Shown here in pieces: positions 5,068 to 32,609 of a DNA stretch of 64,000 nucleotides; position 1 is the first letter of the stretch; the number at the start of each line of letters is the position of its first letter. The translations under genes were made by a program, and so were the position numbers. Under the pieces are notes generated by a model, which saw only the letters and a program-made list of their open reading frames with translations, was not told the origin of the DNA and did not search any database. The stretch is from Psammoneis japonica. Its lineage: Eukaryota. The DNA is taken from the NCBI GenBank assembly GCA_008632985.1, contig QPGO01000011.1:496001-560000 (forward strand), in the 5' to 3' direction.

Positions 5068-5234
5068 ACGTTTTGCCCGAGTGGGGCTAGTAGATTCCCC
5101 CCGCCCCGCCCGCGGCGCGCGCTGGATGCCGTAGATGGAACCTTGAATGAAAGCTCGTTGCTCGTTGCTCGTTGTGGGTCTGCTATGTCAATTATAATCA
5201 ACAACGATAACAACTCTTACAATATAACGCAACC

Positions 5235-9117: not shown

Positions 9118-11443
9118 CTTGTTAACATGTGTTATTGGCTTTGGAAATCAAGAGATGTGTCGCATTGGCGAACAAACAGTGGCAACACAGCAAATGGGCG
9201 GGAAATCCGCGAGTTCAACACAAGCGGTGGTGGAAGCGGCTGAAGCTGGCGCACGGTGAAACAATGAAGCACTGGCATCGTAGACAATTAGTATCATTCT
9301 ACGTGCATACGTCACCGTTGTCACACCGCATTCCATCTGCATCTCCGGGTTGTTCGTTCTTTAGAGGTTGAAGCTGACAGGCACTGCATTTTGGTGCGCG
9401 ACAGTGCGCCTGAACGATTCTCCCTGCCGTAGTTACACTTCTTCTTCTCCGCAAGCTACGACTCCATGTAATTTCTCCTGACCTGTTGTGCTCCAACACA
9501 ACTGTCCATGCGGTCGTGCCCGCCCCGACCCCCATGGGCCATGGGGACCATGCCTTCACCTGCCCTAAAACAATGCACACAAGATCCCTCTTTCAAACCC
9601 CATGTCCCCCCTCGATGCCATCTGCGCCATCATCAAAACACTGCTCCCCCCCAGTGGTCTGCGCCACTCTTGCCAACAAGTTCATCTAGACCCTGCCGGT
9701 CTTCTTGCTGACCACCCCTTGAAATGCCCCACCGACATTGGTGATCAACTTGCCCCGGCTCCACACGACCACCGGAAGCCTACCCACCCACCAATTTTTG
9801 GCCATCGATGTCACTGTGCCACCAGCCCACCCGCCTCCTGCACCTGGTTTGCCGCCCCTGAAAACCTGTTAAAGAATGCTCACCTTAGCAGCACACAGGA
9901 CAAGCTCCTTGGTTCAACTGCATTGTCCACCTGCCACTCCGACATCATCCCCTCGATGCTGTCGACCAAGCAGGACTTTTCCTCCTCCCGCCCTCACCTT
10001 CGATCACCTGGGTGGTGTCTGGCACCACTTTCATGTCTTCTTCTTTGGCATCTTCACCACAACATCCTCTTCTGTCCCTCCTCTCTCTCCCAAACCACAC
10101 TGGACTGATCCATCTTCTCTCTCCAGCAACTCCCCAAGCTTCCTTCTCCACCTTCAAAAACTCACTCCCAGCCCCCTCTGACTTCCTCACACCCACTCCA
10201 ACAATGCCTGGAAACAAGTGTTGCCAGACTGCTTTGGCGCCTCCCATCATGCCACAAGAACCCCCCAGCTTTGGGCCTCACACATCCTCAGCCTTGACTT
10301 TGGTGTCACTCTCTCCACCCACCTCTCTGCACGCTGCCAAGCCCTCCTTCTCTGACACCCAATTGTCAACTCCCCCTCCCGACCATCTGTCCGCACCCTC
10401 TTTTCCTTCCACCACACACTCCTGCCAACCCACCCATTCCATCACCACAGACCCCTGACACATGCACAATTGAGGGTTTTGCTTCCATCAATGTCAGCTC
10501 ACATTGTGTTGACTGCCCACAGATGACAGCAGGTTGAAAATTCTGCATGAGAAAACAAATCTGCATCAACAAGGGAGCAAAGTCAAGCTGAGTTAATGGG
10601 GTGACACTGCTGAAGTGTCAACCAGTCATCTTTTTGCACACTGTGCCCACGTCAAAGGCTGCAACACAGTGCCCCCCACTGTCCTTTGTGCACTTTTTAG
10701 TGTGCATTGTCAAAATTGTCAACAAGTCGAATTTGAAAAATGCCAGCAACAGCACTCAACAAAATGCACTTGTTTTGTGTGCTGGGCTTTCATCTGACAT
10801 CTCATCAGCTTTTTTGCACAAGCTTCAATCAAATGCATGCAATGTTTGGTTCAATTGGGGCTGACATCTTTTTTTTGCGGTGCATGGTTTGGTTTCCTTT
10901 TAATGGTGGTCATCAGTTTGAAGTTGGTTTTAACTTTGTCCTCCATGCTCATGTGCATGCATCCCTTGCACATGTGCAGCTTGCCTCATGCATGCACACA
11001 GCCCATGCTCATTTTAAATTTTTCTTCATGCTTCCCAGATTTGCACAGCCCATTGGTTTGCGGTGTTTTCAGCTTTTTTTTCACGTGTGCAATTTTCTGC
11101 ACACTTCACAACAGCGCACCTTCTCCTCAAATGTCAGAAAGCAACAGCGTGCTGCCATGATTCATGTGGATTCCACGTGTGGTCACAAATCTGCAAATTG
11201 ACAACCTGCCATGATGGTGAAAGACTTTGCCCCATTGGCCAATGACAGCAGCTCAGTGCAGGGTGAGACCTGCTGTCCTTCTGGTGGTTGGTCAAGATGG
11301 GTTTTGATTGGGGTGTTGCTTGAGTTTTGTCATCCAGAACACCAAGCCAGCAGCACGCCATTGTGTGTGTGCACATCACAAACTTTTCTGCAGCAATGGC
11401 ACAATGGCACATGTCAGAGTTTTGCTTCCAGAATCATTGCAAG

Positions 11444-11750
11444 TCACCACAAATGACACTCTTCAAACAAGGCATGTGCAAAAAGAGGTTCATTGGTTTT
11501 TGATGCATTTGCCAGCAAGAGTGCACCTGTCTTCTCCAATTTTCATGTCCAGATCCAGAAAGACTGCAGGCGGTGCTTGTTCCCACAGCTCTCAGAATCA
11601 CATGCATGAAGCGGGGCTCACCACAAATGACACTCTTCAAACAAGGCATGTGCAAAAAGAGGTTTGTTGGTTTTTGATGTGTTCACTGATGTTGCACCCG
11701 TCTTCTTCCAATTTTTGTGCCCAGATGCAGAAAGAGGACTGCAGAGGTGG
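11444..11750 (+). repeat. Two-copy direct repeat, period ~174 bp
   Basis: Identical 47-mer tcaccacaaatgacactcttcaaacaaggcatgtgcaaaaagaggtt at 11444 and 11618, followed by diverged but alignable sequence. Confidence 0.9.
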
Positions 11751-12074
11751 AGAGTGGGGAGGCAACCCATTGGAGGTTGCCTGAGTTGCAAAGCTCATTT
11801 TTAAAGGCCTCCCAAATCTCTCCACTGTTTCTGGTCCATGCTCCAAACACATCATTGATGGACCATCTGCAGCACAGGAGGTGTGGGGTGAACTCAGTCA
11901 TTGCCACATGACTTGTCATTCATGCAGTGCCTTGCCCAGTGTTGCACACATGCAGGTGGTGCTTGTTCCCACAGTTGTTCTGGCAAGTGCATTCTGTGGG
12001 CAGGGGTGGAACGGGGCACTTGACATTGCACACCAGTGTCCACGTTGCTCCAGAACAAGTGGCGCCAGATGCAC

Positions 12075-12507
12075 GGCAAGTCTGTGTTGCTGCTCCCATT
12101 GGTCATGTTGCTTCATCTGTGTCACACTCTCACAATGTGGTCTGCACTTTTTGGCAATGAACAAGGTGGATCAGAGCAACAGCACTTCTGTCACAAACTT
12201 GCCTGCTCCAGAATTAGCAGTGCTGGATGCACTGGTGAGTTCATGTTGCCATTCCTGTGGTTCATGTTGGTTCATCCATGTCACACTCTCACAACGTGTT
12301 TCACACTTTTTGGCAACAAACAAGGTGGAGTGGCAGTGCTTCCTCAATTTATGGAACAGCAGCTCCTGCTGCTGACTTGCCTGCTCCACAATCAATGGTG
12401 CCAGGCACACCGGTGAGTCTGTGTTGCCGTTCCTGTTGGTCATGTTGGTTCATCCACATTGTGCTCTCACAATGTGTTCTGCACTTTTGGCAACAAATGA
12501 GGTGGCT
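12075..12507 (+). repeat. Three-copy imperfect direct repeat (~160-177 bp period)
   Basis: Core tcatgttg.ttcatc....ctctcacaa.gtg..c..acttttggcaa..aa..aggtgg at ~12075, ~12234 and ~12411. Confidence 0.85.
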
Positions 12508-14993
12508 GCTGGCAGTGGCATTTCAAGAAAGAAAACTGCAGCTGCTGCTGCAAACTCAATTGGTGTTCTTTCCATCAGCATCATTTGAATTAAACACAAA
12601 TGACAAAATGAAATGTTTGCAACGCAAATGATTTTAATTTGAAGGTTTTGCAGGACAGAGGGTGGGAACTCTCACAGGGAAAATGGGTGGCTGTTTCACA
12701 GTGAAAATGGGGGTCAGACCCCATGGCATGAAAATGTTCATCTGTCACAGTTGAAATGCCATCGCCACATGCACAACTGGCAAGGTGTCACAGCACAGAT
12801 TTTTCACCCACAAAAGGGGAGAAAATCACTGTGAGAAAGGTGGTCTCAATCACTGCAACATGTGCTCTGATGCGCTTGCCTGGTGTGCTGTCTTGTTTTG
12901 TTTTCCTGATCTTCTGACACAGGAGGCAGTGTCCTTGCTTGACTGCTGAGTCTGTGGCTTGAGTTTTTTGGTGGAGTGGTTGTGTGCAACTCCCAACAAT
13001 GTGAGCAGATTGTCAATCAGAAACCTGGGCTGCATGCCTGAACATTTTTTGTCAATTTGAAAATGTGTGTGTGTGGGTGGGTGGGTGGGGCTGCAGCTGA
13101 GCCTGCTTTGCCATCTTTTGTCAGAGAGCACTCATGTGTGCATCCATGCCCTTGTGCTCAAAAGAGTGCACACCTTGTTTTCATGTGGGACATCTTGGCC
13201 TCCTCCTCTGTGGCACTCATCAACAAGGAAAACAGCAGCATGTGCCCAAAGAGCCTCCCAAACAAATCCAGCCAGGTGAGCTTTCAACATCTTGCCTCAC
13301 ATTGGAGTCTGAAACCACAGCTTCAATGACCAGTCAAGAAAAAATGGCCCGCGCTGTTGAACAATGTCTGAATCAACCAAAACAACCTTGATCACCCAAC
13401 AAGCAGGGCATTTGCTTTTTGAGAGTCAGCCTGACACGAGACAGTGAGAGGAGGACAGAAAACAAAGTGCTCTGTTTTCCAACCAATGTCCACTGTTCTG
13501 GTTTGGTTGAGTGTGCAGCAGGTGGCTCAACCATCACCCTTGTGTTCTCCCAGACCAGCCTTGCTGTGGTGCTGCAGCCCTTCTGTGAGACCCACATTGT
13601 CACGTTCTTTCCCAGTTGAGAGCTTCAAGGAAGCACGCTGTTGCCTTCAAAATCAGGGGAAAATGTTCATGCATTGTTTGCATCTGCCAGGCAACCACCC
13701 AGTGCAATGTTGTTGTGTGACAAATGAGCTTGCTGAGACAGCTCTGCCTGCTTGCCATGGGAGCATTTTCAGCTCAGACTCTCCAGCTCAGAAATCCAGT
13801 CTTTGGGCTCTCTGTTTTGTTCCCTTGCTCATCTGCTTTGAGTTTGAGAGCTCTCCCATGTCAATCTCTTCATCAGACAGCTTTTTCTTCATGTGCTCTG
13901 CCACTTTCTTGTTCATGTGCTGGCCCACCTCCAACTGTTTCTCCTCCAACTCTTCATTTCACCATGAGCTCAAGCTGTCATGACCACATCACACTTGTTG
14001 ATGCTGGCGTGCTTGCAGTGGGAGCATGGAGTTGCATCTGGAGTGACTGCCAACTTCTTTGCACTTGAACCTGCCATCATTCTCAGTGCATTTTGTCATT
14101 TTGTCAAAAGGGCCACCAGAAGTGTCGTGGCTGGAATCACTGCCAGCAGGAGCACTTGTTTTCATGCTTTCCTCTTTGTGCATCTCTCTCTGCAGACAAA
14201 AGCAGCCCAGGAGCGCACCATTCTGGTGAGTCTGTGTGGTGCAATGTGCTGGAAGACACTTTCTGTGTCACTCATCTTGGTGCCTTGCATCATGCGTTGG
14301 CTCTCCCATCTCTTTGCAAAACTCAACTTCGCAGTTTGGAGGGGCAACTCCGGCCCACGCTTTCTTTTCCCAGCCCTGGAGTGTGACATGGCTGTTGCAT
14401 GGCTTCAGATGCCAACACTTGCTCAACCTGTCAAAATGCCATTTGGTGCAGCAGTCACCTGGCTGCATGGGTTGCTCAACATTTCTCATGATGCTTGGGT
14501 TTGAAGAGGATTTGCGGCTCTCTTGCGACAAAATTCTTGGTTGGGCACAGCACCACGCGAGATGAGCATCCCACTCTGCAACAAAAATGGTGCTGTGTGC
14601 TCCACAGGTGCAAGTTTTCCTTCCTTTTGCTTCTTTGGGTCTCATGTGCTGTGGACCAAGAAGACAATGCCTTTTGCCGTCAGGGTGACTGGGAGCCCAT
14701 GACACTGTGCCATCAACGAACCCCAAACATCTGCTGGGTCTGTTGCTGTGTCCGCCTTGTGTGTTTCTGCCCAACCCCCCTGCACTGACAGAAAGAATTG
14801 TCATTGTCAACCCCGCAAGCAGTGGGCTTTCTTGGTTCATCCATTTCAGCACATGAAACTGCTCCAACAGAGACTTTGAGAAGTTTTGCAGGCAAGTGCC
14901 CTCTCAACCCCCGCCCACCCCACTTTCGAGAAATTCCGTCTGCTCTCTTCCGTGCATGCGGTTCACGCACAACGCACAACGCCGCAGAGGCCC

Positions 14994-15028
14994 TTGACCG
15001 TTGACCGTTGACCGTTGACCCCTGACCG
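14994..15028 (+). repeat. Heptamer tandem (TTGACCG)3-TTGACCC-CTGACCG
   Basis: Read directly; lies at the right border of the TE domain. Confidence 0.9.
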
Positions 15029-15116
15029 ACAAAATCCAAAACGACAAAGGTGTTCAGCTACTATGATACATAGAGAGTAGCTGTTCCCATTGCAAGTTTT
15101 GTTGATTGCACCTACA

Positions 15117-16555
15117 ATGTACGACTCCCCGACTGAGAATCTTGGATTCAACTCCGGACGATACACTTCGTTTGGACGTCGCGGTCGACGAGAAAAGGTG
15201 ACGACAACCAAAACTGTTGTCGGCAGCGAAGCATCGCCCTCTCCTGGTAAAAGATTCCCAACTCGTCGAATGCACTCCACGGAGTCAAGGGCAAGGTTGT
15301 TCGGGTGCTGGGCCACAGTGATCATCTTGGGGTCCCTTATACTGTACGTGTCATTGAGACCAAAGGGCCCATCAGAAGACGCTTCTGTTATAAAGTCCAA
15401 CGTAAACTTGAGACAAAATAGTTCACAAATACGCCGAGAAAGCCATCCGCCGGAATTGTTTCGAGACATCATTATTGAAGAGTACCACAGTAAAGGCTCC
15501 ATCAACATTGCCTGCTATGTAAAGCTTCCAGACTGGTGGCATAGGGAGAATTCAGTCCCTCGAGCGCAGAAATTCTTGATGAAATTGACGACTGATCACT
15601 CGTATGCCGCCAAGGAAATTGACGCCTTGCAAAAAATCAGCATTGACATGAAAGAGGCAAGACGTCTCAAGATGCCTTGGTTAGTGGCCGGAAGTTCGAA
15701 CATTAGCAATCCATTTTACTGTCGCAGTGACGACAAAGAAGACTCCGAGCCGTGTCCAGAGGCTCTGTCATTTCCAGAGTCCTTTCCCCACAGAGTACAG
15801 GAACGGCTACGTGCCAGACCGTACGTGGCGGCGCTTGTGGTTCCATTTCTCCAAGGACAGGGCTACGTGTTCGATGAAGTAAAAACAATGGCAGATCTTC
15901 AACGTTTCATGAAGAGTATACTGGGGCAGTTAGCTCTTGCACACAGTGTAGGGATCAATAATTTGGATCTCAGCGGGATCGCAATGTTCTCGTCGACAGT
16001 GACGGCGATGCGGTGTTGTTTGACTGGAATGGCGCTATTGGCTTGGGTGAAAAGCTTTACAACGCCGATAACAATTTCGGCATTATTCCACCCGAGGCCT
16101 GGATCGAACAAGTAGAGGGACATGAAGTCAAAATGATGTCGGTTTCTGCTTTTGATGTTTGGTCGGTTGGCATCATGTTTGCTAGGTTGATTTTCTTTCC
16201 GTGCCGATGGGCCTCCCATCACACATATGAGCGAACAAACGATCGACTGCGGGCCACGATACTCGCTCTTGGTGGAAATACTGTCATTCCAGTAGACAAG
16301 GAAATGAGCGTGGACCTGGCAGAATTTGTTGGGATGAATCAAACAATTGAATCAAACACAGGCATCCTCCCGCACCTTGTGGATAAGCATCAAAAAGACA
16401 GTTGCCCAGAGACGTCATTTGAATTTCTCGATAGCCTTTCAGACAATGACAGACAAAAGGCGTTGGATTTCCTCAAATCAATGATGAAGATTTCTCCTCT
16501 AGACCGTCTCGATTGCAACTCATTATTGAAGCATCCTTTTCTTTCCTCTGTTTAG
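15117..16555 (+). CDS. Membrane-anchored divergent Ser/Thr protein kinase (one frameshift at ~15975)
   Basis: N-terminal TM (WATVIILGSLILYV). Kinase motifs AHSVGINNLDLS..RNVLVD, LFDWNGA, PPEA, DVWSVGIMF, LDFLKSMMKISPLDR..LLKHPF. Confidence 0.8.
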
Positions 16556-17198
16556 TCGATCTGCCCCGTGGTGCCTGCGCTATCACTGTACGATTACTGC
16601 ATGGTCAACAAGGCTCAAAGACGCACCTTGTCTATCAGCGTAAAACGAATGCGATAGTGCATCCTACTGTATTCCAAGAAAAGGGAAACGAAGCCGGTGT
16701 TCTACCGTAGATTATTAATGCTCTTACTAGCCCGCAGTGTACTCCACATTGAACATGAAAACAGGAGCGATTTGTGTCCGCCATCTCGTGCAATTTGGAT
16801 ACTCCGTCGTGCACTTGTGGAATTCTGCCACTCGCATGGTCACAAACACAGAGGTCTTCAATTCTGAGCTATATCGGGGGGCAAAATGGAGCTTCTAAAC
16901 AAGCTCAACAAGCCAGATGGTGGTCGGGTTTGCCAGCACCTCACGTTTTACCCTGCTACTGTAGCGGGTTTTGACAACCGGAACGCGAGTTGAGTTTTAT
17001 TAGACGGATCAACCAGTGAGTAGAGGAAACCAACACCCCCAAAATTCAGTTTTAGACAGATCATCGGTGAGTAAAGCCAACCAATACTTCCGCATCTTGT
17101 TTCTCTGTGTTCTACAGGCGGGCAGTTGCGACTCTTGTCGTGGTGAAGTTACACTCTTAGTAGATGATTACAGATCGGGGACAGATACCATCCTAAAG

Positions 17199-18803
17199 CT
17201 AGGAGCTACGGTCAACAAGAACAATCTCATGCTGCTGGGGCTCAATGTTCCACTTCTTGATCACAGTGCCATCACTGGTATGAGCAGAAAGCTCGTCGCC
17301 AATGTCGGCAGTAAAAATAAACTGCTCTTTGGGTGCGACCTCGGCAACAAGTAAGCCGTTTACCGAGACCGAAACATCTTTGACATTGTTGTTGGTAAAG
17401 GGGAATTCCACGACACCCGTTTTCGGCTCATCCCAAACGATCCCGGCAAAATCCTTTACGTGCAAAACAGCATTCTTTGCCTCTGGAGCATGCTTGACGT
17501 CCGGCTCGTCCACCAGAGCAAAGCGCATACCTGCATCCCAGTCTTCATTTTCAATTTTCTCCAACTTTCCGCCTGCATCAGAATATGTGGCATCAAAGTT
17601 ACTGTCCCTGAACCAGAAACGAGTGTATAGTCCATAGATCAACGCTCTTGACATGGAGCTCTCGTTTGGTCCCCCGCGATGTGTGATCTGGTAGTCAAAC
17701 ACAACGGCATCCCCCATGTCAACAAGAGGCACCCGCCAATGATCTGGAGGACATGCACCCATCGTTGCTCGAAACCTTTGCATTTCTAGAAAGGGACTCC
17801 CTCCCTGAATTAGAGCCTCATTGAGAGCAGGCGCGTGCATCGGAACACCGCTCAAGTGCGACGACCCCATGCAGAACTCCGTCGGACCATGGGCATACGT
17901 AGTATTCTCAACAAGTGGTATAAACACACTGGCGGCGAAGGGTGGCAAGTCATGCCCGCCAATTCCTGATACGTCAAAGCTCTCGCTCGTCCAAATGTAG
18001 CCCATATCATCGTGCCAGTGCATTGTTGGAGCACCACTCTCCGAAATCACCGAACCTACCTGGCTCAAGACGACATCCGGTCCCAGCACTTTCTCGTGAC
18101 TCATAATATTGAGGATATTATCGTTTTGGAACATTTCATAGCCACCCAGCCACTGGGGAAGAATGACATCATGGCGCTTCATGCCTCGATCTTGCACAAT
18201 ATCGCGTGCTCTAGAGTCTGTAGTCTTCGTATCCACCCTACTGATCTGGCCTGTATGTATGGCGTAGAGATAGTTGTCGTACTTGGTGCGATACTCCTCT
18301 ACGGTTTCCTTGGGGATGATGTTTCGCAAAACGAGCAAACGGCACTTGTTGAACACGAGCGCTGCTTCTTCAGGATCAAAGTCTTCAGCAGAGACGTCAA
18401 ACTCTCTTTCCATGCAGTCGTAGTCGTTAACAACACTTTCCAAGCGACGGGCGTGGCGATCCGCGTAGGTAGTAAACACCTCTTCCGCAGCCGGGACGTT
18501 GCATTGCGACATGCTCTCATCCTCTTGTTGTCCCATCGCCCCAAGGGTCAACTTCATGAGCTTAGCCAGGGAGTCGTCAGCTTTATCGTTACCTTTGACC
18601 TCTGATAGTAGAATCATGGCATTCTTGAGCACATCGACCTTGTCAACCTCCGTGCTGGAGAGGGAGGATTTTACCAACTCTAAAACGGCATCGACGCTCG
18701 ATGTTGGTTGCTCAGCTTCTTGTTGGACCCCAGCCTTATCCTCGGAAGCGGAGATTCCGCAGACAAGCGCCACAATAAGCACTAAACTTCGGAAAAGATT
18801 CAT
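17199..18803 (-). CDS. Secreted PhyH-like Fe(II)/2-oxoglutarate dioxygenase
   Basis: Signal peptide MNLFRSLVLIVALVCGISA. Motifs WHDD (HxD), GPTEF..GS, GDAVVFDYQITHRGGPN..R. An upstream ATG at 18848 is an alternative start. Confidence 0.85.
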   Translation of the reverse strand: MNLFRSLVLIVALVCGISASEDKAGVQQEAEQPTSSVDAVLELVKSSLSSTEVDKVDVLKNAMILLSEVKGNDKADDSLAKLMKLTLGAMGQQEDESMSQCNVPAAEEVFTTYADRHARRLESVVNDYDCMEREFDVSAEDFDPEEAALVFNKCRLLVLRNIIPKETVEEYRTKYDNYLYAIHTGQISRVDTKTTDSRARDIVQDRGMKRHDVILPQWLGGYEMFQNDNILNIMSHEKVLGPDVVLSQVGSVISESGAPTMHWHDDMGYIWTSESFDVSGIGGHDLPPFAASVFIPLVENTTYAHGPTEFCMGSSHLSGVPMHAPALNEALIQGGSPFLEMQRFRATMGACPPDHWRVPLVDMGDAVVFDYQITHRGGPNESSMSRALIYGLYTRFWFRDSNFDATYSDAGGKLEKIENEDWDAGMRFALVDEPDVKHAPEAKNAVLHVKDFAGIVWDEPKTGVVEFPFTNNNVKDVSVSVNGLLVAEVAPKEQFIFTADIGDELSAHTSDGTVIKKWNIEPQQHEIVLVDRSS

Positions 18804-20489
18804 CCTCGAGGAAAGCAACGAAACAAATTTTGTGCCATTACAGGCCATGATGAAAAAATGCGTCAATCATCAATGCGCAAGAGTTCGCATTTTGATTTCA
18901 ACTATCACATTTTTGAACATGATTAGAGCCCCGCTCTACCGATCGATGATACACTTGCCATGTACTGTACCGTACCAAGGGGCCAAAAAGTAGTGCCCCC
19001 CCCCAAAATTTGAGTCTTGTACAGTATCATAGCATGGAATTACCGTATGTGACGTTGCCTGCGCGCGTGTATGTGTGAAACAGAAGGATTTGAACAAATG
19101 CGGATATATTGTCACGAATGTGGATACTTGGCTCTATTGGTCGCTGATGGCCGCCCAGCCAGCAGGAGAGTTGGTCAGGGTACGTAGTCTACTGTACTGA
19201 AACCAAGAGATAATTTACTGTAAACCACAGGTAAACCACGCTGGCCGTCATTTACACATTATTTGTACAGCATGTACATGAAGCATGCATGCATTGTGTT
19301 GCATTAGAATCCACACGCCAGCATGCCCCCATCCAAAATTTGAATGTTTCGTATATATTCTTTTACTGTTCATGGAGTGTATATACCCATAATCAAAATT
19401 CCAAATTTTCAGAAGTCGAAACCGTTGAGAACATCCGAAGGAGCACCGCGACCAGAGTTGTCCGTTTCCGTCCCCATTGTAAAACTTGTGCCGAGACGTC
19501 TCACTCTGCTCTTCACATGTTCCTGTCAGCAAATTGTGCAAGGCCACTCACATGAGCATTGTTGTTTCTGTTATTTTGCTGCATGCTTGCGACTGTTCAT
19601 TGAACGTGTCGTTTCCATTTTCTCACTTTGCATGCTGTTGATGTCATCTCCTCATTCAACCTCCAGCAAAGTGCCCTGCAGGAAAAATGCTGTGCTCTAT
19701 GATCAATTGTGTTCCATGATTGCAAGGTGTCTCCTTTTCATTCCCATTTCCATGCAACATCGATGACGACAGTGGCTGGTGGGGCAGCACTGGCAAGAGG
19801 AGTTCGTGCGCAGCTCATTTGGATGACAGGCCCATTCAGCGCTCACGCATGCAGCATGTGGAGTGCTTTGCACTGTGTTCTCATAGCCAGCTCTCTTTTT
19901 TGTTGGTGGCAGCTCTTTTGTTGGTGGCGGCGGTGGCTCTTTTGTTGGCGGTGGTTTGTGTCATCCGGGGGATCAGAAGCGCAACACATCCAGGTGCTGC
20001 ACCTTTCCATGGTGGCCCATTCGCAATGCCCTGGTCCAACAGCCAGTCATGCAATGCAATGCACAGCATGGTGGCTTTTGTTTGTCTGGTGCTGATTGTT
20101 TTTTGGTGTGTCTGTGGGTCCCACTGTGCCAGTGTTTGGTGCTGGGTTGGCCTCCAAAGGTGCTGGCTGCAATTGCGTTGGAGGCACTCTTTTGTGGTGA
20201 TGATGATCCCAGTGGGTCCCAAGTTTGTGCATCTCCAGTGCTGACTCAGATGGTGTTGCTGGTTCTGGCAGATTGAGCAAGAGTTCGAACAAGTTTGCCA
20301 GTGCCTCAATTGATGGACAAGATGATCTTTTGTCTTTTGCAGATGTTCGTGAACAGGGTGGTGGAGTTGCTGTTGGCAACGGTCCTGGTTCAAGCATTGC
20401 ATGCACTGACCCTCCACCTTTTCCAGTGCTGGGTGTGTCTTCACTGTCTGAATGCAAGGTTTTTGTCAGTGCTGAAGCAGGGTTCTCAC

Positions 20490-21700
20490 TGTCACTTGTT
20501 CAAAAGGAATCCATTTTCAACCTTGGCTTTGCATTTGAAGAGCCTGATTCTGGTCATTGGGATCTTTCCAAGTCTGACAAGAAAGCTCTCATTGTGAAGG
20601 GCAAGCTGTTCATTCCACATTGGGGAGATCACATGAAGCAGTGGCCTTGTTGTGCTGTCATTTTTGTGCATCCAGGTGAATGGGTCTCCACATTGCTGAA
20701 GGTCTCGGTGCATCTCTGGCGTCATGCACAACAGAGCCTCTGGCCAGCCAGTCTCATCGTCCCTTTTCAGACAGAAATCAAACCCCAGGTTGCCCTCTTT
20801 CATCAACTCAAGGAATCAAATTGAACTCTTTTTTTTCAGCAATTCTTTGCAAGTTCCCGGGCAAACCCAATGGCGATGTGTTGCTTGCTCTCGTCTGTGT
20901 TGATGAGTCAAGCTTGGACACAATGCTTGAAGTTTTTGATGAAATTTGCATCCATGTCAGTGTGCGCCGGCATGTGCATCTGAAGCAACAAAGGGCGGAG
21001 ATCCTTCGGCTTGACAGATGGGTTTTTCTCTGTCATGGTGATTGCGGACTCAAGACAAGCAAGATTTGGCTGAAGGCTGCCACTTGTTTCTTTTGATTTC
21101 TTGTGGTTCAACACAGTGTTGAGATCATGGCTGTGATCAAGACAAGTTCCAGTGATTTCAATGATGTGAAAAATGTCATGTTTTGGTTTCCCATGAGGAG
21201 ACGGATCCACACACTTGTTCACAAGGGAGCAGCAAATCAAGAATGGGCACTTTGTCTGCTCTTTCATGGTTGGATTGCAGGGGAGATTTTCTTCAACTTG
21301 GGACAGCACATGTTCCTCTTGTGCTGTTTGCACACTTCAAGAAGTGACAGACTGCCCTTCTTTCCATCGTGGATGCAAGTCATGGCCCACATGTCAAGGA
21401 AATGGACAACAGCCTGGCACAGCTGTTTGCAGCTGACAAAATGATGCCCTTTGGGAAACATCTTTTTTGGTGCTTTACCTTGAATGCATCCAAGCAGCAT
21501 TGGTTTTTGGAGCCGTTGGAATCTCTTCCTTGGTTTGGCCCAAGCTGTCAATCTCTTGACAAAGAGCATGACATCAGTGAGCCAGCCTTTTGCAAGAAGT
21601 TCCTTGCTTTGCTCCTTGAGAGGACGCTCCACAGAGTGAGAGCCATGTGCTCCCATGAACAATGGCATCAACACGGAGAACAATGCATCCCAATGGCATG
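20490..21700 (-). pseudogene. Mutator-like (MULE) transposase relic
   Basis: GFDFCLKRDDETGWPEALLCMTPEMHRDLQQCGD followed, after a frameshift, by LDAQK*QHNK. This resembles the MT..M...YGD.LFLD...YN region of MULE transposases, with Tyr replaced by Cys/His. Confidence 0.6.
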
Positions 21701-22063
21701 GAGGTGGAGCGGATGAGTTGGGTGAGTCAGAGGGAGAGCTGGTGGTGACTTCATGGTGAGCGTGAGCCAACCCATCAGCAGCGGTGCCTTCTTCATCATC
21801 AATGATGAGCCAGCCTGGATGCTTCGATGTGTCATCTGGCTTGTCAGAAGCATCGTCATCATTGGATTTGCATGTGTTGTCACAGGCACTGTCATCTTCA
21901 GGGCTTGTGCTGGCATTGTCATTGCTGTTGCTGCTGTCACAGTTGGGGGGAGAGCAGCCCGCATCATCAATGTCAACCACGCTGATGTTGTCAATGAAAA
22001 CTTCATTGCAAGTGTTGCTGGAGTTGTGGTGTGGAAGTGTGGCAGCACTTTAAATGCAGATTT

Positions 22064-23750
22064 CATGTTTTGTTCAACACTCTGTCTTGTCTTTCACCCA
22101 ATTCTCAGTCATCATGGCAGTGTCAGAGCTGGTGCACTGTGATGTTCACATTCCCAGAATGGGCATCAAGAATGGCGTGATGGCACAATCATTGCAATTG
22201 ATCATGGTGCATTGCACCATGTTGGTCCCATGGTTGCTTGTGCAATTGCTGAGTTCTTTGTGTGCATTCACAGATGTTTTTGAAGACCAAATCAATGCAT
22301 GGTGAGACAGGGGGCAGTTGTGTGTCTTTGCCAGTGGCTGGAAGAGGGCGCAACAGGTTCGTCCTTGGAAAAGGAAGCAGGACCATCCTGATGCCATCAT
22401 GTCATTTGTCCACAACACTGGTGTTCCTCAAATCCTTGTTGTGTCAGATGGCACACTGGAAACAGTGGAAGGCCAGAGCAAAGACATCTGCAAGGAACAC
22501 AGACCCAGAGTGGTGTGGTCTCTGTGCCACAAAGCCCCTGGCAGAACAACCCAGCACAGCCATCCACTCATGAGTCACAGAAAAGGTGTTGACACCCTTG
22601 AGCTCAAGACATGGGCCTGGACTGGACAGTTCACCAGAGGGAGCAGAATGCAAAAATGGCAAATCATTGCCAAGGCCTTGTTGGGGTGCTCTGATGTGGG
22701 CAGTTGAGCTTGGATGGATTGAAATCTTTGTTGCCATCTCACTCATGTCCTCCTGCCAGGTGGCACCACAAGTTGGACACCTGGGTGAGGTGCTCCACAT
22801 CTTTGGGTGCTTGAAGGCTCACCCAAAGTCTTCACCAGAGTGTTTCTTGACAACATCGCTGAGCCATTCTTTGATGAGAGCCAGCTCACTGCAAGCATGG
22901 CTGAGAAGAACACGACCACCCTGGTGCAGCTGAACCATTGAGGCCAAACATGGCAGAGACATGCAGGAATGGCTGGCATGACCACTGCTTGCTTTGTTGA
23001 TGCAGATCACTGTGGATGTCATGTGATGTGCAGGTGCAGTCCTGTTGTTCATCCAGCGAGTGCTCATTTTGCACAGCTCTGAGACAAGGCAGAATGCCAC
23101 AGAGTCATCTGCTGCTTTTGGGCTGGAGTTCATGGCAATGAAAGCTGCCATGGAGCAAATCAGAGCCTCTTGCATTGCAAGCTTCAGATGCCAGGAATTC
23201 CCCCTGGGTGGGGCCACTGACATCTTTTGCATCAAGAACTGAACTGGACCAGAGCCCATGTTGCAGAAAAGAAGCACAATGCAGCTGCACACCACAGGAC
23301 TCATGAAGCACAAGCAATGGGAATTGTGAGCATTGCTCTGGAGGACAGATGCTCAAACCCAGTGGATGTGCCAACCAAGTTGTTTGATGCCTGGACAGAA
23401 GCTCCTCTGGGAAATTGCAAGTCACATCTCATGGTGAGTCCCAAAAGGGGACACACCAAGCAGGTGTGCCACACACCTGGAAGTGGTTTTGTCATTTCAT
23501 CCCCAAAAATTTAGAAATCACCCTGGAATGAGGCAGCACCAGGGGGGGGGGGGGGGGTGGGTGAACAAACAATGCTGATGCACTGTCACAAATGTGGGCA
23601 GTTGTTCACCATTGGCAATTTGCCCACCGTCACTGACACAGTGGCCCCAGCAGCAGTGCAACTGACTCACAGCTCCAGAAGAACCTGTTGATGTTGCTCA
23701 ACACTCTGTCTTGTTGTCTTTCACCTCATTCTTGGCCATCATGGAAGCAT
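22064..23750 (+). mobile_element. Internally deleted Copia relic with probable LTR remnants
   Basis: Integrase (KRKQDHPDAIMSFVHNTGVPQILVVSDG), RT C-terminus (WAVELGWIEI..SLMSSCQVAPQVGHL..VLHIFGCLK) and RNase H (FVDADH, QNATESS..FGLEFMAMK, KKHNAAAHHRTHEAQA). Flanking direct repeat tcaacactctgtcttg..tctttcacc at ~22073 and ~23698. Confidence 0.8.
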
Positions 23751-26700
23751 TTGTTCAGATTCATCCTTCACTTGGAAAAACACTGCTTCCATGGTCGTTT
23801 TCTGCTTCTAAATTGAGTCTCATGATGTGAGAGTTGCTCACAGTGGCAGACCTGGTCCTTCCTGCCTCAGCTCTTAATTTTTGAGCAGCCGGCATTGACC
23901 CTGTGACTGCTGTGACTGGGTGGCAACTTCAGGGGGAGGGGTTGGAAGATGAGGAAAGGAGGAAGAAGCACCACACCAAATCTGCTCAGCTGCTGCCTGC
24001 AGTGACAAGAAGGAGGGTGAGGACATCAACACAGAGACAGAAAAAGCAGTGCACAAGGGCTGCACTGAGACAAAGAGACACTGCCACCTCTGCAAGAGCC
24101 AAGTGTGTGCAAACTGAGTCAGTGTGAAAAGAAAATTTCTTCCAAAGCAAAGGAGCTTAGAGAGTGCATGTGTTGCGAAGGGGCATTTCCCCAAAAAGGG
24201 AAAGGAGAGTGAGTTGCAACATTGTTTGGGGCAAACAGTTGGTGGAAACAGCAGCTTTGAAGTGGAGCACAACTGGACAGGGATGGCCACACTTTCTACC
24301 ACCTTTGAGCCTCTGTGTGGTGTGGCAACTGTGTGCTCCATGTGATGCCCTCCTCTGGTGTCTACAGAGGCTCTTGCAATTTCAAAGTGCAGCACATGAT
24401 TTGTTTGCACCAACCAAAAAGTTGAGAGACTCCAACTCTTCTGCCCCATGGCAAAGCCATTGTGCCATTGCTTTTGATGCTAGAATTTGCACTGGTCTGT
24501 TGCACCTGTTCACGAGCCCTCCATCTTTTGCAGCCAATGAAAGCTGGACAGAAGCTCACCCAACAATTTGTCAAAACATTGCAGAAATCTTGACTTTCCA
24601 CTTTGAGATCAAAAGAGATCCCTCAGACAAACCCAGCAACCAATCTCCCTGACAGCTGCAAATCACTTTTGAAGACAAAAGAGCAACACTTGCCATCATC
24701 ATGCTTCAATTGTGGGGCCTGATGACATTCTTTTTGTTTGCAATTGGCTGCAAACAAGCACATTTTTTGTGCTCAAAAGTGCACACCCAGAAAAGGAACC
24801 AATGCTCACATGGCTGGTGTGGTGCACCTTTCAACATGTGTGCAACTGGCTGAGAAGCAGGAAGATGCACAATGCCAAAACATGAGCAAGTGGAAGTGCC
24901 ATGTGAGACAGCTGATTGGTTGGCCCATGGGGTTGGCCAGAGTGGGAAACTGCGACACTTTGTTTGCAAGGTGCGAGCCATTTCAATTGCCAGCCCATCA
25001 ACCACACATGCAGCCCTGGCATCAGACACAATTTTGCTGCAGCTGCAAAACGGCAATCCCCTGGCTTGTCATGTGAGCTCTGCAAGTCCTTGACAAGGAA
25101 AAGCTTTTGGTGAGCTCTGTTGTGCATGGCAAACAATTGTGCGCCATTTTGCTCTTCTTTTCCATGCTCATTGGCGATGATGCATCAGCAGAAATGGCTC
25201 ATCACCACAGCCTGGTGAGCACTGCTGTTGTCAATCTGCACAAGGGTGTGTGCAGTCCAGCAATGGCAGCAAGGTTTTTGACACTTGCTTGAGAATTGCA
25301 GGCAACAGCTCACACTGGCCAAACTGACACATGGCAACATTGTTCATTTTGTGCATCTGACAAGTGGACAAGAACAACAGCACGCAGCAGTTTTTTTTCA
25401 TGAGCACACATTGTCATGTCTTCACAACAGTGCTGCAAAAAACCAGTGCTGCCACAGACCATGGCTGCTTGGGCAGTGTGTGCAACATTGCAAGAGACTT
25501 TTGCAGACACTGTCACATTGCACTTTGGCAAACAAGCATTCCATCAGCTGCTGTCAGCTCTCTGATTGAGAGACACACAGCATGAGTGATGGCAACACAT
25601 GCCAAGAACAGTCTGAACTTGGTTGGAATGCCTGGCACTGGTGTTCCTCTTCCTCTTCCTGTGACTTTTCATTGGACCCAGCCTCGTTGCCATCCAGCTG
25701 ATCATCTGGCACTTGATGCTCAAGATCATTTGCATCTTGTTGGTGTCATGATCCACTCCTGCATGCCAAAGAAGTCAAAGGAACACATCAATCTTTGGTC
25801 TTCAGCTTGGGACCATTCCTCTTGTTGTGCTTGGCTGTTGCATTGACAGCAGATGCTGCAATCACTGTCAGTGGGACAGGAATGGCAGAGACCCTGCTGC
25901 CCATGAGAACTTGTGTGGTGGCAAAGTGAAAAAAACATGTGTCACAACATTGAGAGGCCTGAGGCAAACAGCATCAACCATGCACTGTGCAGGTGTGTCA
26001 GAAGGATTTGGCTCATCACAGGCTTGGATGTGCTGGCCAAATGAAGGAAGAGACAATGACCACACTTCTTTTGAGATCTTGTGTTTGGCTTGCAGTCATG
26101 TCCAAAGCAATGGGCAGCTGGATCTCAAACTGAAGACCAGCTCAGCTTCACTGTTCAAAACTTTTCAGTTCAGTTTGAGCATCCAACACTGGGTGCAACT
26201 TGGGTGTGGCCAAAGCCTTGTGGATTGGCCAAGAATGGAAAGCTCATGACAGCACAAATGCAAAAATCTAAAGAGTGAATGAAAGCAACTGCAGCGTTCT
26301 CTGAAGGAAACAGCACCACACTTTTGCCAGTTCAAACCACACAGACTTGCCATGCACTCATGCTCAGCCCTTGTTTCTTGCAAAGCAGGTTCCCCCAAGA
26401 CCATTTTCCCAGTTCAATTGATCTTTGGCTGTTCACTGGCTTCCTGAGAACTCTTTTCAAGCAGCTTGTGAAATTCTTTCATGAGTTGACATCCCTTCTG
26501 TGTGAAATTGATGAACTGATGATTCACTCTGGGCTTTGAATCAGGAAAGGAATCCTGCCTTTTGTGCTTGGCAACAAGGCCAATGCAAACACCAGCTTCC
26601 AATTCCAAGAGGCCATGCTTCTTTTACAGATCAAGCTCCCAAAACAAAACCAAAATTCCACATTTAAAATGCTCCTGCACTTCCACCCTGCAACTCCGGC

Positions 26701-26979
26701 AACACGCCAACCCACACCCCCAGCACACTGACAGTGCGGCAGGAGCATGTGGTGATTGGCCAGAATCGGCATCATCCAAGGGTGATGCCACACCAAAATG
26801 ACTTGCAATGGTTCTTGCACCTCTGGCAGCAAACTGCACTGCTTCTCCAATGCTTGATTTGAACATTGGCCTGACCATGGCCAGCCAATTGCAGAGAGAC
26901 AATGAGTTGAATGTGTCAAATGTTCTTCAACTGAATCCAATGGATGTGCCCTGTCTCACCAGATTGCAACATGTGGCTT

Positions 26980-29100
26980 TCACCTCTGCTTTGCTCAGTG
27001 CTGCTGGGAGGACTTCCTTGTTTCCACATCGTGACCATGGACCGCATCATTGTGTTCATCCCACAGCTCCCACCACTGCTCCCAAATGCAATTGCCAATT
27101 GCAGCCACCTTGTCCAGTCTCTCATCTTGTTCAGAGAGGTTCTGATGGTGAGCACCACTTGCCAAAAGATGCAAAGTTTGTGTCATGTTCCACACTTTGG
27201 AGAAGTGTTTGTCAAACAACTGACTCCATCCAATTTGCTCCTGGGACTGGAAAACTGTCACCACACTGTGACGCAGGTCCTCAGAACAAAGCAACTCCTC
27301 CCAGAACCATGCCTCTGCGGCTGAAGGAATCAAATCGCACAAGGACGGGCATGCATGGTTGAATGATGTCACACTTCTTACACAGACCTTGTGGAAATTT
27401 TCGATGCCAAGCTTCACTGTGCAGACAATGGAGAATGTGGTCTCTGTCTTTCATTGGATCTTGACAGTGTGCACAACAATCTGGGTGGGTGGGGTTGTGT
27501 TGGTGGATGACTTTGTTTGTTGGGAGAAGTTCCTGCACCAGCTTGACCACACTGACTTTCTGGCAGATGTTCCAAGACATTGGTTTGGCGCGCATCTCCC
27601 AGTCAATCGATTTGCGGGTTTTGTTGGACCAACCACACTTCTCTTTCATGCATCATGTTGGATGACTGGCTTGCACTTGGCCAAGATTGTGGCACCCTGT
27701 GCAATTAGATTGGCACTGCAATGGGGCATGCAAGGTGCAAAAGAGCGTTGCTGGAGAAAAATGACCCTCGCATTGTCCTGCCAATCTGTTGGCTTTGATG
27801 TTCAACTGAGCTGCCAAAGACAAGGAGTCCATGGGCATTGTGATGTCTTGGTGTCCCTTGACCCAGTGGACTGAGACTTTGGCACCATGCTGCTCATTGC
27901 AAGACATTTTGAAGATTTGTCGCATGGAATGAAAATTTGATGAAGACATCCCAATCTGCGGAAAGAGCATTGGCGATGTCATGTTGCTGATGACAGTCCC
28001 TGGCACCTTGAATTGCCTCATCATCTGTCAGAAAAGGGGAAGCCTGGAAATCAGAGACATTGTGCACAAGTGAGGAACTGTCACAGTGCACAATGTCCGC
28101 ACCTTTGGCGAGCATTTTGCAACAATGTTTCATCAGTTGAAACAGGAAACAGAGGAAAGACAACAATCCACATGCTTCAACTCAGCAAGATGATGAATGA
28201 AAACCAAAAACCAGGTGGCACAATCCACCAATGGAGTTCCGTCAACTGCAAGTGTCCAACCAAACGTGCCCCAAAAATTGAGGACCCAATCCATCACTGC
28301 CCACTGAGGCTCGATGATGAACCAGCAGGTCTGTGACCTTGAACACAGACATGTGCAAAGTCAAAACATCAAACAACAAGGACTCTCATTTGGGGAGAGA
28401 TTGCAACATTGCCCTGAAGTCATTGGGAACTCCCAGAAGGGTGGGTGGCGGGGAAACCCGTGTGCCCAGGGAAGTCATTTGCCAACAACCAGCATGGGTG
28501 GCATGTGCCAATCATGCTGGGGATGCTGCAGGGGAAATTTTGGGGATTGTTGCCAAGGCAGCTGCTGATGCAGAGCATCTGTCAATCACTGGAAATGTCT
28601 GAAAACTGGAACTGTGCAAATGTGCAGGCAGTCTTCCAAAGGCTTGTTGGGCATGCTGCATGAGACATGCACATCTGGGGGTTCGGTGCTGCCCACTGCC
28701 CCAACAGATGGCTCATTTCCAACAAATTGACTTTGCACAAAAGGGAACATGCACTGTGCCATTGTCTCCAGGCCCTGGCAGATGGGTGGGATTGTTTGGT
28801 GGGATTCAAAGTCAAATGGCTGCTGAGAAGAGAGTGTTTGTGCCATTGACTTTAAATTGATTGCCAGATGTGCCATCTGGCAAAGCAACATCCAACAATG
28901 TCAGAACATTCAAACACAATCAACAACAATTCACCCACCAGATCTCCCAATCAGCAAATGCGTGTGACTCAAGTGCCATGTCCATGATGCATTGGTTGTC
29001 ATCCTGCTGCAAAGGCAACAACACACCAGTGTTGTTGAAGTCAACATGCACCTCAATCCTGGCCAAAAAGGAACAGAGAGACATGAATCAATGAGATGTG
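26980..29100 (-). mobile_element. Non-LTR retrotransposon (LINE with RNase H) 3' relic
   Basis: PLQQDDNQCIMD, PSARAWRQW..LGQW, RNase H VHWVKGHQD..LSLAAQLNIKANRLA, SIDW, CAHC..DRDHILHC zinc-knuckle-like motif, QEQIGWSQLF, WELWDEHNDAVHG. Confidence 0.75.
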
Positions 29101-31261
29101 GAATGAGGCAATTTGGTGTCAACATCTTGAAAAAAGTTGACTCCTGTGCCTTTTTCAAACTGAATCCATGCCACCACAATCTGGGAAAAAGCTTCTTGTG
29201 GTTGCCCAGAGCCTTGCCAATGTCAAAGAAACTGCAAAATCTGTGCCGCTCCCTGTCCCACACTCAAAGACCTGAAACCTCTGCCTCCCAATGAATGTGG
29301 ACCAAATGAAACAGATCAAGCTCCCAATTGTCACCAGCATCAACAGGGGCCCAAAGTTTCGTGTGCGTCTCATTCGGCATTGGTGCCCAGCACAAGCTTT
29401 CTCTGCATGTTTCTTCTTCTTGGTGTGTGTGTGTGCCCCCTTGTGCCTCCAGAAATCCATTCATCCCACCCTCATGATTGGCACTTTCTGTTTCAGTGCA
29501 TCATGACAAAGAATTGGGTTTGTTGTCCACAGCGGAGGCACAGAAAATTTCTAATTCCCAACTGGGCTTCCATTTGGTGGGCAATCCATGTGGCGTCATT
29601 TGCGGCTGCAAAGGCGCCATTGCTTTTGACTCTCCAGCAGGAGCATTGGTGCCATGTCCATCCGTGGGTTTGGAGAAGACACGTGATGTGACTGCAGATT
29701 GCACTGGGGGCATGGTTGTTGGCATTGATGTTGTTGGAGCTGAGGTTGCATTGCAGGATGCAGTTGGGCATGGCATTGCCATCATCATGGTCAAAATGGT
29801 CTTTGCTTCTTTGCTTCAGTGGCAGCTGCCACCAGCGGATGTGAAACTGGTCGATGCCTGGCACATGCCAAAAAGTGCCTTTTTTGCTGCATCTCTCCAC
29901 CTCTCACATTACGTTGAAAATGCCATTGTGTTGTCACTGTCACATTTGCAGACAAGAATCATCACAATGGGGTGTGCCAATGGAGCAAAGGATTGGAAGA
30001 AATGCAACAGACGACTGTCCACAGTGGCAGAAAAAGAAGCAAGGGCCAGCAAGAGATGAGGGGGGTGGGCTGCAGAGCATGCAGAGAAACATTGGAAGGA
30101 TGATGAGGAGTGAGAAAAGGAAAAAAGGAAGGCAAACTTTTTTGCCACCCAGACAAAGCACAATGAAAATGCAAAAGAAACAGAGCAGGAGCAACAACCC
30201 AAGCCAGACATCTCCATTGCAAAGAAACAAACGTTGCTGGTTGCAACAGCACAGAGATGTGCACTTGCAAACATTGGTGCAAACCTTGATGATGAAAGTG
30301 AAAAGGGCACTGATGACCAATGCAATGAAGCAGCTGAAGGCATGGAGGGAGGATGATCTTTTGTCATGAAGGATTGTTTTTCTGCCACACTCTCACATTT
30401 CACAGAAGAGGACTCGCCAGTGTTTTGGGAGAAAAACCCAAGCGGTCGGCAAGCTGAAGTTGTTGGAGGGGTTGGCCAAAATTGCAGATGAAGCACGGGA
30501 CTTGTTTGGATCCATGCATTGCACCCAGCTCACAGCATGTGCCTTTCAAAAGCAGTCACAAATGAAGCTCCCCCCCACACTTGTGAACATGCGCAAGTGG
30601 AGAATGATCTTGCTGTTGTCCTCTCTGAGCCACTTTCTGGGGGGGTCATTCCATCTCATTGTGTTTGCTGCCTTCCACCACCAATGATCCTCCGGAGGAA
30701 TGTTCTTGGCCAAGCAGGGTTCCATGTCACAAGTGTCCAAGGCAGTGTCCTCAATAAATTGTGTCCAATGTTTGCACTGCTCTTCACTCCAGAAGCCACA
30801 CTGCCCCCCTGAGACTTTAAAAGGATCTTCTTCTTCACCAGAATAAAAAGTGATTTCATTCGCTTGAGAGATCCCCCCACCGGCAGTTGGTGTGTCTGTC
30901 AACACGTGCAACTAGCTAGCTAGAGAGGAGGTAGGTTCCTACCGCAGGAAGATGCACAAAACTAAAACGTTGTCTCACAGGAGTGCTGTGCCGCAGGAGT
31001 CAGCTGATTGGCTCACAGGATTGGCCAGTGCATGCAGCTCTCACGCTCCGCACGGTGTCAGAAGCGGGTTGGGGTGTTCCTCTCCACCAGCGCATTGCCC
31101 ACTACTTGGAGAGTAGAGGGCTAGCTACTAGGAATCTGGAGGACGCAAGATGAAGTCTATTTTTTACAGAACACATTATTTCTAAAATCGGAGGAGGCCG
31201 TTCTATGAAAAGCATCCTTGAAACACCGACGAGTTTCGCTCAGACCTGTTCTTTAAACTTC

Positions 31262-32609
31262 TCAGGCATGCTCAGCTTGATTCCAGTCCCAATTGAGTTT
31301 CTTATGGTCACTGGCCGTGTAACCAAGCGACAAGAATAACTGATAAAACATGTCACGCAGACCGGCATAGTTTGGCTTTTCGTCAAACCCAAGATCCCTT
31401 GCATAAGCAAGAAAATGTCCGAATTCTCTAGGAAGCCCCTTGCAAAGCCCACTAAACACTGGAGTCTTCTGCTTACACATCATGATGCGCCGGTACTTTT
31501 CTCTCCCCTCCCCTCCAAGTCCTTGCCAGGGAAGTCTTCCGAGGAGGAAGTAAAATAAGACATAGGCAATGGACTCCAAGTCATCTCGCCTTGATTGCTG
31601 CGTGTTTAAGTGGGCATTGATGGATGCGTATCGCGGCGTTCCAGTCAGCGAGGCACTGCCTTCGGGAATGTGCTGAAGCGTCCGAGGATGGCGATATACT
31701 TTCGAAAGCCCAAAGTCAATACAATAGATCGTTGCCTCGTTCCCTCGATCGGTAACGAAATTGGCCGGCTTTATGTCACGATGAATCAAATGGCGAGAGT
31801 GCATGCTTTCGACTCGTTTCAGCATTTGATCGGCAATCATGAGCACTGTTTTGAGAGAAAACCTGCGTCCACAGCTATTGAAATGATCTTCCAGTGATGG
31901 ACCGAGAAGATCCATTATCAATAGATCATACGAATCCTGTGTGCCAAAGTAATGAACCTTGGCAAAGCCAGGAGCATCCTGAAGAGACCTGATAACTTTA
32001 TATTCATGCCGGAGTTGTGGGTTTCGGGTTCCATGTCGTTCAAACTTGACGGCAAGCTGCAAGCACGACAACAAGCACGGAAGAGGTGAGACGTGCATTC
32101 ATTATACGGCACAGGCGTTTTGTGTGCAATGGGCGTTCTGCTTACCTTCTCGCCACTCTCACTGACACATATGTAAATGTCCCCGAATGCCCCACCACCA
32201 ACACGTCTGGTGGTTTTCAGTTTTTGGTTCTAAAATAGGGCAGAACATGCAATGAGGGACTGAAACACGTGCATGGCCGTCAGGGAAGAATTGGCACAGT
32301 GAAGCTTACCGATATCATACGTTTGACAGGCTCTGGAGTCACGGCTTTGGAGTCCGAAGATTGACCAACCAGGCTCTCAGGTCCATATTCTTTTCCTGGA
32401 GGCCTGATCCTCTCGTCAGAACTCGGAGACCCTTTCCTTCGAGGAGAATGCTCGACCCGATTGCACGATCCGTCAATGGGTTGAAAACAACGATCCATCC
32501 GTGAATTGTTGTACTCGTGATGGTTGTTGTCACTCCCATAGCGGTTCCTCAGCGTATCGACTTTGGGATAAAAGCGTTCCACGTCTCTTAATGGCTTCGT
32601 GCGTTGCAT
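31262..32609 (-). CDS. Casein kinase I family kinase, copy A (introns 32309-32230, 32145-32057)
   Basis: GGGAFGDIY, AVKFE, PQLRHEY, LLGPSLED, HRDIKPANF, IDFGLSK, SLTGTPRYAS, SRRDDLES, LPWQG. Start approximate. Confidence 0.93.

Follow-up and report, generated by a model that had tools for sequence, protein, structure and literature searches.

Mutation confined to one dinucleotide of foreign DNA has been described in the alga Bigelowiella natans. In mutation-accumulation lines of this species, two integrated viral regions, made up of giant-virus and virophage DNA, mutate ~1000-fold faster (Mettrop et al., bioRxiv 10.64898/2026.01.13.699255). That preprint reports 231 de novo mutations; the changes, all of them at TpA and giving TpG or CpA, are nearly only A to G and T to C, and an ADAT2-like adenine deaminase is proposed (10.64898/2026.01.13.699255). 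The words context, flanking, trinucleotide, TTAA and diatom do not occur in the main text, although the supplements may give the contexts (10.64898/2026.01.13.699255). TpA-specific hypermutation of invading DNA thus far amounts to one preprint and one alga, with the enzyme not identified there, and a literature search of limited coverage found no description of TpA hypermutation in diatoms. Here we analyze a stretch of 64,000 nucleotides from Psammoneis japonica (GenBank assembly GCA_008632985.1, contig QPGO01000011.1, positions 496,001 to 560,000 of the forward strand; hereafter the window), in which the dinucleotide TA is nearly missing from three sharply bounded blocks (A, B and C) as seen in dinucleotide profiles. 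The few TAs that remain in these blocks very probably record the flank preference of a TA-erasing mutational process that acted in place on transposon-derived DNA. The blocks and the features within them are as follows (all ratios are observed/expected; bp, base pairs).

Block A: 1 to 4535, forward strand; dead copia-type retrotransposon, truncated by the window start; TA ratio 0.04-0.17, CG ratio 0.63-0.88, CA+TG raised.
Variable segment in block A: 1365 to 1754; 390 bp holding 8 of the 19 TAs of block A; TA ratio 0.30, CG ratio 1.04.
Block B: 9890 to 15058; repeat-derived, TA- and CpG-erased; 10 residual TAs, each preceded by T, 7 of them TTAA.
Block C: 19885 to 30750; TA- and CpG-erased; 17 residual TAs (TTAA 4, CTAA/TTAG 6, GTAA/TTAC 4, CTAC 2, CTAG 1).
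Decayed copia-type pol remnant in block C: 22538 to 23281, forward strand; found by tblastn with 78 full-length copia proteins.
Residual TTAA sites in blocks B and C (start positions): 10593, 10900, 10930, 11014, 11801, 12590, 12634, 22050, 23874, 26664 and 28852.
Cluster of four residual TAs in block C: 24158 to 24482; holds all three TAs of blocks B and C that lack both a 5' T and a 3' A (CTAC, CTAC and CTAG).

Blocks B and C together (16,035 bp) retain 27 TAs, or 1.7 per kilobase (kb), compared with 38.7 per kb in the 41,948 bp of gene-bearing DNA of the window, whose 1623 TAs serve as the outside baseline throughout. Beyond the bins at their edges, the TA ratio in these two blocks is 0.00-0.06 and that of CG 0.06-0.37, while CA and TG stand at ~1.6-2.2. 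The loss is specific to TpA: AA, AT and TT are not reduced in any block (~0.7-1.45; AA 1.0-1.45). DNA between the blocks has a TA ratio of 0.5-0.7, and the block edges are abrupt, as at the end of block B, where 12636-15058 is free of TA and five TAs then fall within 20 bp from position 15059.

The direction of change can be read from the pol gene of block A, using codons at which at least 60% of homologues have tyrosine (Tyr). Among 43 such codons, 24 are now TGY and 13 CAY (Y, pyrimidine), five are something else, and one still encodes Tyr (TAY); the element therefore carried TA when it was made, and TG or CA replaced it later. With 37 of 43 Tyr codons altered in this way, and with CA and TG gained, transitions from A:T to G:C account for nearly all of the change, as in the hypermutation of Bigelowiella natans. 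Block A has lost ~90% of its TAs (11-19 left, depending on whether the variable segment is counted, against ~175 expected) and has retained CpG, so that the loss of TA must be a separate and fast process and not general decay. The blocks differ in this respect, since all three are TA-erased and CpG is kept in A and lost in B and C; because TA is lost regardless of CpG state, its erasure is either faster than CpG decay or independent of it. CA and TG are interspersed, without long one-strand tracts (runs-test z of +2.6 in A, -0.25 in B and +1.6 in C), and nothing indicates that single strands were acted on processively.

The DNA that was hit is mobile as far as it can be recognized: block A is a copia element, block C contains a copia remnant, part of block B is a repeat by sequencing depth, and the genes between them are spared; the remaining parts of B and C are without recognized origin. 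Block A has RVT_2 matches and can be aligned over 2-3980 with 78 full-length homologues of ~1,900 residues. Its family reaches a summed depth of ~60,000-215,000 in the contigs of run X1, where single-copy DNA has ~55, and in the same run contigs corresponding to ~10681-12816 of block B have depths of 1761-4236. Tandem copies were found by self-BLAST inside block B (11444-11744 and 12046-12551), and a fraction of 0.81 of the sampled words of block C is present in run X1. The pol remnant of block C drew ~70 tblastn matches among the matches listed, apparently one per protein, at 25-44% identity and with E values down to 2e-9. A Pfam scan of 110 stop-to-stop frames in the three blocks returned only RVT_2 (in A) and three chance-level matches, with no domain in B, and found nothing else recognizable in the rest of B and C beyond the copia remnant and the repeat depth. 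Self-BLAST of the window gave four weak pairs, with no unmutated partner among them; X1 contigs aligned to 1-16000 at 80% likeness gave the repeat depths and differed from the window at 890 places. The variable segment of block A is skipped by four X1 contigs that join 1364 to 1755, no homologue aligns there, and it may be a later insertion with a shorter exposure.

The residual TAs are highly selective in their neighbors. Eleven of the 27 in blocks B and C are TTAA, eight are CTAA/TTAG, four GTAA/TTAC, one ATAA/TTAT, two CTAC/GTAG and one CTAG, while ATAC, ATAG, ATAT and GTAC have no residual site at all. TTAA makes up 62 of 1623 TAs outside (Fisher odds ratio 17, p=4e-9) and 866 of 18,009 (0.048) in the 77 intact loci among 78 copia loci from metagenomes (p=2e-8 versus B and C). 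A 5' T or a 3' A is present at 24 of the 27 sites, compared with 608 of 1623 outside (p=6e-8), and the arrangement pyrimidine-TA-purine at 20 of 27, compared with 243 of 1623 (p=2e-11); conversely, the purine-TA-pyrimidine classes have none left of ~190-195 expected. The observed TTAA share of 0.41 exceeds the expectation from local base composition (0.065), from the gene DNA of the window (0.038), from the AT-richest quarter of that gene DNA (0.058), and from TAs arising as fresh mutations of local CA and TG (0.062; binomial p=3e-7). Shrinking the block edges by 300 bp on each side retains the same 27 sites. Expressed as density, TTAA is 2.2-fold rarer in B and C than outside (0.69 versus 1.48 per kb), whereas other TAs are 37-fold rarer.

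To place the contexts on one scale, the proportion of pyrimidine-purine steps (four kinds in all) that are TA was taken for each flank pair, and survival is its value inside the blocks divided by its value outside.

TTAA: survival 0.62 in blocks B and C, 0.59 in block A.
CTAA/TTAG: survival 0.19 in blocks B and C, 0.31 in block A.
GTAA/TTAC: survival 0.046 in blocks B and C, 0.037 in block A.
ATAA/TTAT: survival 0.015 in blocks B and C, 0.000 in block A.
All other contexts: survival 0-0.03 in blocks B and C, 0-0.13 in block A.

The selectivity extends one base further: where T flanks the TA, a second T follows outward at 21 of 35 half-sites inside and at 221 of 670 outside (p=0.0016), and TTTAAA accounts for 5 of 11 TTAA sites inside and 6 of 62 outside. 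Block A, a separate element, replicates the flank bias: without the 390-bp segment, 6 of its 11 residual TAs are pyrimidine-TA-purine, in comparison with 243 of 1623 outside (p=0.003). A CpG beside the TA was tried as a second protective context and rejected; it is found at 8 of the 19 TAs of block A (p=0.001), but 5 of these 8 belong to the 390-bp segment, and elsewhere the count is 3 of 11 (p=0.14). As for the cluster at 24158-24482, it may be a less exposed patch.

These contexts are well described by an additive model in which each strand contributes one term to the loss exponent, its value depending on the 5' neighbor of TA as read on the strand concerned. Its four parameters (T 0.22, C 1.56, G 2.85 and A 4.34) fit the ten strand-symmetric classes with a goodness-of-fit p of 0.95, and a likelihood-ratio comparison with uniform survival gives p=3e-16. 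The rate order by 5' neighbor, T<C<G<A, holds whichever form of model is chosen.

An earlier note on this DNA had reported, for 10590-30850, that surviving TAs are concentrated in TTAA, TTA and TAA, and the counts above bear this out. Its 12 listed TTAA sites are all present, including one at 30817, two of them one base away from the positions given (26664 and 28852), as are the exceptions that it named (tctac, in which TA lies at 24297 and 24363, and gctag, in which it lies at 24481). The interval itself needs dividing: it is TA-poor in B and C, block A falls outside it, and 15059-19884 is ordinary gene DNA of normal TA density; its TA-poor parts hold 12 TTAA among 30 TAs. The comparison of NTAN tetramers inside and outside, which the note had proposed, gave the TTAA excess described above, and its idea of an enzyme-like footprint agrees with the strong, graded flank signature, which in fact reaches one base further out. 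Its explanation, that an A/T context as such protects, does not hold, for ATAA/TTAT kept 1 of ~69-81 expected sites and ATAT none of ~41-44. What protects is polarity, that is, a pyrimidine 5' of TA (T, and less so C) and a purine 3' of it (A, and less so G). The note had left undecided whether the 5' T or the 3' A matters, and survivors cannot separate the two because each turns into the other when the complementary strand is read.

We propose the following mechanism. Transposon-derived DNA would be hit in place, with TA turned into TG or CA through A:T to G:C changes at TpA only, at a rate set by the neighboring bases: slowest with a 5' T and then C (equally a 3' A and then G), and fastest with a 5' purine and a 3' pyrimidine. 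Purine-TA-pyrimidine sites would then be wiped out, TTAA would mostly escape, CTAA/TTAG would escape in part, and an extra T or A one base further out, as in TTTAAA, would add protection. The loss of TA, the gain of CA and TG, the direction of change at Tyr codons and the dependence on flanks are directly shown; an enzyme reading about four to six bp around TA is inferred as the cause, with adenine deamination and thymine modification as candidate chemistries. The TAs now present would be slow-reacting sites that either escaped erasure or reflect a steady state in which TAs are remade and erased. Some are clearly old: codon 2399 of block A encodes Tyr in 78 of 78 homologues, and the sites at 646, 3599 and 3787 fit conserved residues. 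If the loss of CpG in blocks B and C is a matter of age, C to T changes at ~3,670 CA and TG sites should have remade far more than 27 TAs, and erasure was then probably repeated or late. The flank rule would in that case express the ratio of making to erasing, with the order of contexts the same either way.

Several observations weigh against this account or limit its precision. The sample is small, with 27 residual sites in B and C and 11-19 in A, and in block A alone the four-parameter model is not significant (p=0.13-0.18). Ancestral TA counts were estimated from other DNA and not observed, and only Tyr codons such as 2399 can clearly be called survivors, the TTAA sites of B and C being without an ancestor. 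A multiplicative model, in which the flanks act on the duplex as a unit, does nearly as well as the additive one (negative log-likelihood 11.0 versus 9.8). A strictly per-strand model also predicts that ~94% of Tyr codons in the context TTAY go one way, and in block A pooled with L027, an environmental copia-type contig described below, 5 of 10 did so (p=1e-4); these ten codons are few, the preceding base is the third codon position of an undocumented past state, and L027 comes from another organism. The balance of k-mers in B and C relative to gene DNA conflicts with this Tyr-codon test, the conversion of TTAC to TTGC being ~1.02 (0.72-1.33).

Another explanation is that the residual TAs are new, having arisen by C to T changes biased toward a preceding T (TCA to TTA and TGA to TAA) on top of an erasure blind to its flanks. 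Such a bias would by itself yield the 5' T or 3' A seen at 24 of 27 sites; TC and GA are in fact somewhat lower inside the blocks (~0.75-1.1, compared with 1.0-1.3 outside), and fresh TAs must have been numerous if B and C lost their CpG through age. It would, however, be expected from the TCAN counts to produce TTAA, TTAC, TTAG and TTAT at ~29, 22, 19 and 30%, whereas 11, 4, 8 and 1 are observed (chi-square calculated by hand ~10.5, 3 degrees of freedom, p ~0.015), and it leaves unexplained both the further T found two bases out from TA and the CTAG and CTAC sites. Even this explanation would need newly made TTAT to disappear faster than newly made TTAA, and so reintroduces the flank rule; we consider it improbable.

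We give still less credence to the idea that the blocks were rich in TTAA originally, or that TTAA was kept by selection or made when transposons that insert at TTAA duplicated their target sites, in which case the pattern would carry no information on the mutator. In its favor, B and C are without an ancestral sequence for comparison, but the density of TTAA is lower inside the blocks than outside, so that there is no excess of TTAA and only a smaller loss; nor would target sites be expected to give the graded series from TTAA through CTAA/TTAG and GTAA/TTAC to ATAA/TTAT, or the same order of contexts in block A, a different element. As to chance or local base composition, for which only the small sample speaks, it is refuted by the counts (0.038-0.065 expected under four nulls, p from 4e-9 to 3e-7) and can practically be dismissed. 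A flank preference of the erasing process itself thus remains by far the most probable source of the residual TAs.

Which strand or base is attacked might be visible in the products. Tyr codons preceded by T are now TG and CA in a ratio of 2:2 in block A and 3:3 in L027, and those preceded by C in a ratio of 15:4 in block A and 3:9 in L027. The Tyr-codon result leans toward flanks that act on the TA step as a unit. The k-mer balances in B and C are noisy, with CTAC to CTGC at 0.74 (0.53-0.93) and TTAT split evenly, and block A disagrees with them; relative to intact copia DNA, the balance is not strand-symmetric and the gains do not sum. At former Tyr codons as a whole, TG outnumbers CA by 24 to 13 in block A, and in L027 CA prevails (8 TG, 15 CA; p=0.03). 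This difference looks like a strand bias of each element and not like an effect of the flanks, perhaps one that comes from orientation to replication or transcription.

The process occurs outside this genome, too. L027 (2766 bp), the only one of the 78 metagenome copia loci that is TA-erased, has 64% protein identity to block A, a TA ratio of 0.02 and a CG ratio of 0.44, and three TAs are left in it (CTAT, TTAG and CTAG). Its 33 conserved Tyr codons comprise 15 that are now CAY or CAA, eight TGY, one Tyr and nine others (mostly TTY, phenylalanine). The DNA identity of metagenome copia loci to L027 or to block A does not exceed 69%, and an exact pattern search of metagenome contigs for the copia family of block A gave no match.

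The surroundings of the blocks consist of ordinary, intron-poor eukaryotic genes. Among them is a gene of the phytanoyl-CoA-dioxygenase family (17199-18866), whose organism-named relatives are all diatoms (Attheya, Fragilaria, Epithemia and Ditylum) and whose best match outside these is 73% identical; the host is accordingly called diatom-like below. Diverged gene duplicates are not hit: two casein-kinase-I-like copies (31262-32098 and 35147-35854), 67% identical in DNA, keep a normal TA ratio of 0.5-0.6. TA density is intermediate in the zones at the block edges (9480-9890, 19560-19885 and 30750-30912), where the TAs are mostly in CTAA, CTAG, CTAC, TTAA, TTAG and AATAAA. At the far end of the window TA becomes sparse again, with three TAs in the ~590 bp of 63410-64000 and none past 63639; a fourth erased block, extending beyond the window, may begin here.

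Several known mutational systems share features with the erasure described here. Deamination of methylated CpG explains the loss of CpG and part of the gain of CA and TG in B and C, but it cannot remove TA, which block A lost while keeping its CpG. In ascomycete fungi, repeat-induced point mutation (RIP) changes C to T at CpA, making TpA and leaving AT-rich DNA. RIP resembles the present case in that repeat or transposon DNA is filled with transitions at one dinucleotide, in sharply bounded blocks beside untouched genes; it differs in that TA is here destroyed and GC raised, so that the two are chemically opposite, and the blocks accordingly show TA lost and CA and TG gained. Editing of the ADAR type has only a weak 5' bias, against G, so that adenines in AA and CA are edited as well (as described in PMC9600606); if such editing followed by reverse transcription had acted here, AA would be depleted, and its ratio in the blocks is not reduced.

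Adenosine deaminases of the ADAT2/ADAT3 (Tad2/Tad3) type come closer. According to the accounts in PMC9600606 and PMC11087585, fungal mRNA editing by Tad2/Tad3 requires a U just before the edited A, and C or U two bases before it and A or G just after it are favored (PMC9600606); on DNA, amphioxus BjADAT2 is described as preferring GAA, and not TA, for adenine (PMC10354150). A T or U directly 5' of the target A would convert TA to TG, in keeping with the TA-specific loss. The fungal preference for pyrimidine-U-A-purine, an RNA reference, is nonetheless exactly the class that is spared here (20 of 27), and the fingerprint matches an enzyme of the ADAT type only in the T before A. It is conceivable, although we hold it only tentatively, that the flank rule genuinely reflects the specificity of an enzyme, one that inverts the ADAT2/3 preference and is two-fold symmetric over four to six bp. 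The TA eraser of diatoms, and possibly the one of Bigelowiella as well, would then be no tRNA adenosine deaminase put to new use but a different, probably duplex-reading DNA-modifying enzyme. A thymine-directed oxygenase yielding a product that mispairs with G would be one example, a new adenine deaminase of double-stranded DNA another; such an enzyme would represent a chemistry of genome defence without a characterized example.

The comparison with Bigelowiella natans is the closest. There, as here, the process is confined to foreign or mobile DNA, and clusters of the Bigelowiella genome poor in TpA and rich in CpA and TpG are described as enriched for reverse-transcriptase and DDE domains. 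The host of that system is a chlorarachniophyte, whereas the present one is a diatom-like stramenopile, and the viral regions have a TA ratio of 0.45, in contrast to the ~0.03 found here, which is near-complete erasure. To what is reported for Bigelowiella, the flank rule adds a specification that a candidate enzyme should satisfy (erasing ATAT, GTAC and ATAC, and sparing TTAA and TTTAAA), and a sharper signature by which the process may be detected in other genomes; it also weighs against the ADAT2-like deaminase of the preprint, if that enzyme acts as it does on RNA loops. Together, the diatom-like host and the TA-erased L027 hint at a process that reaches well beyond the chlorarachniophytes.

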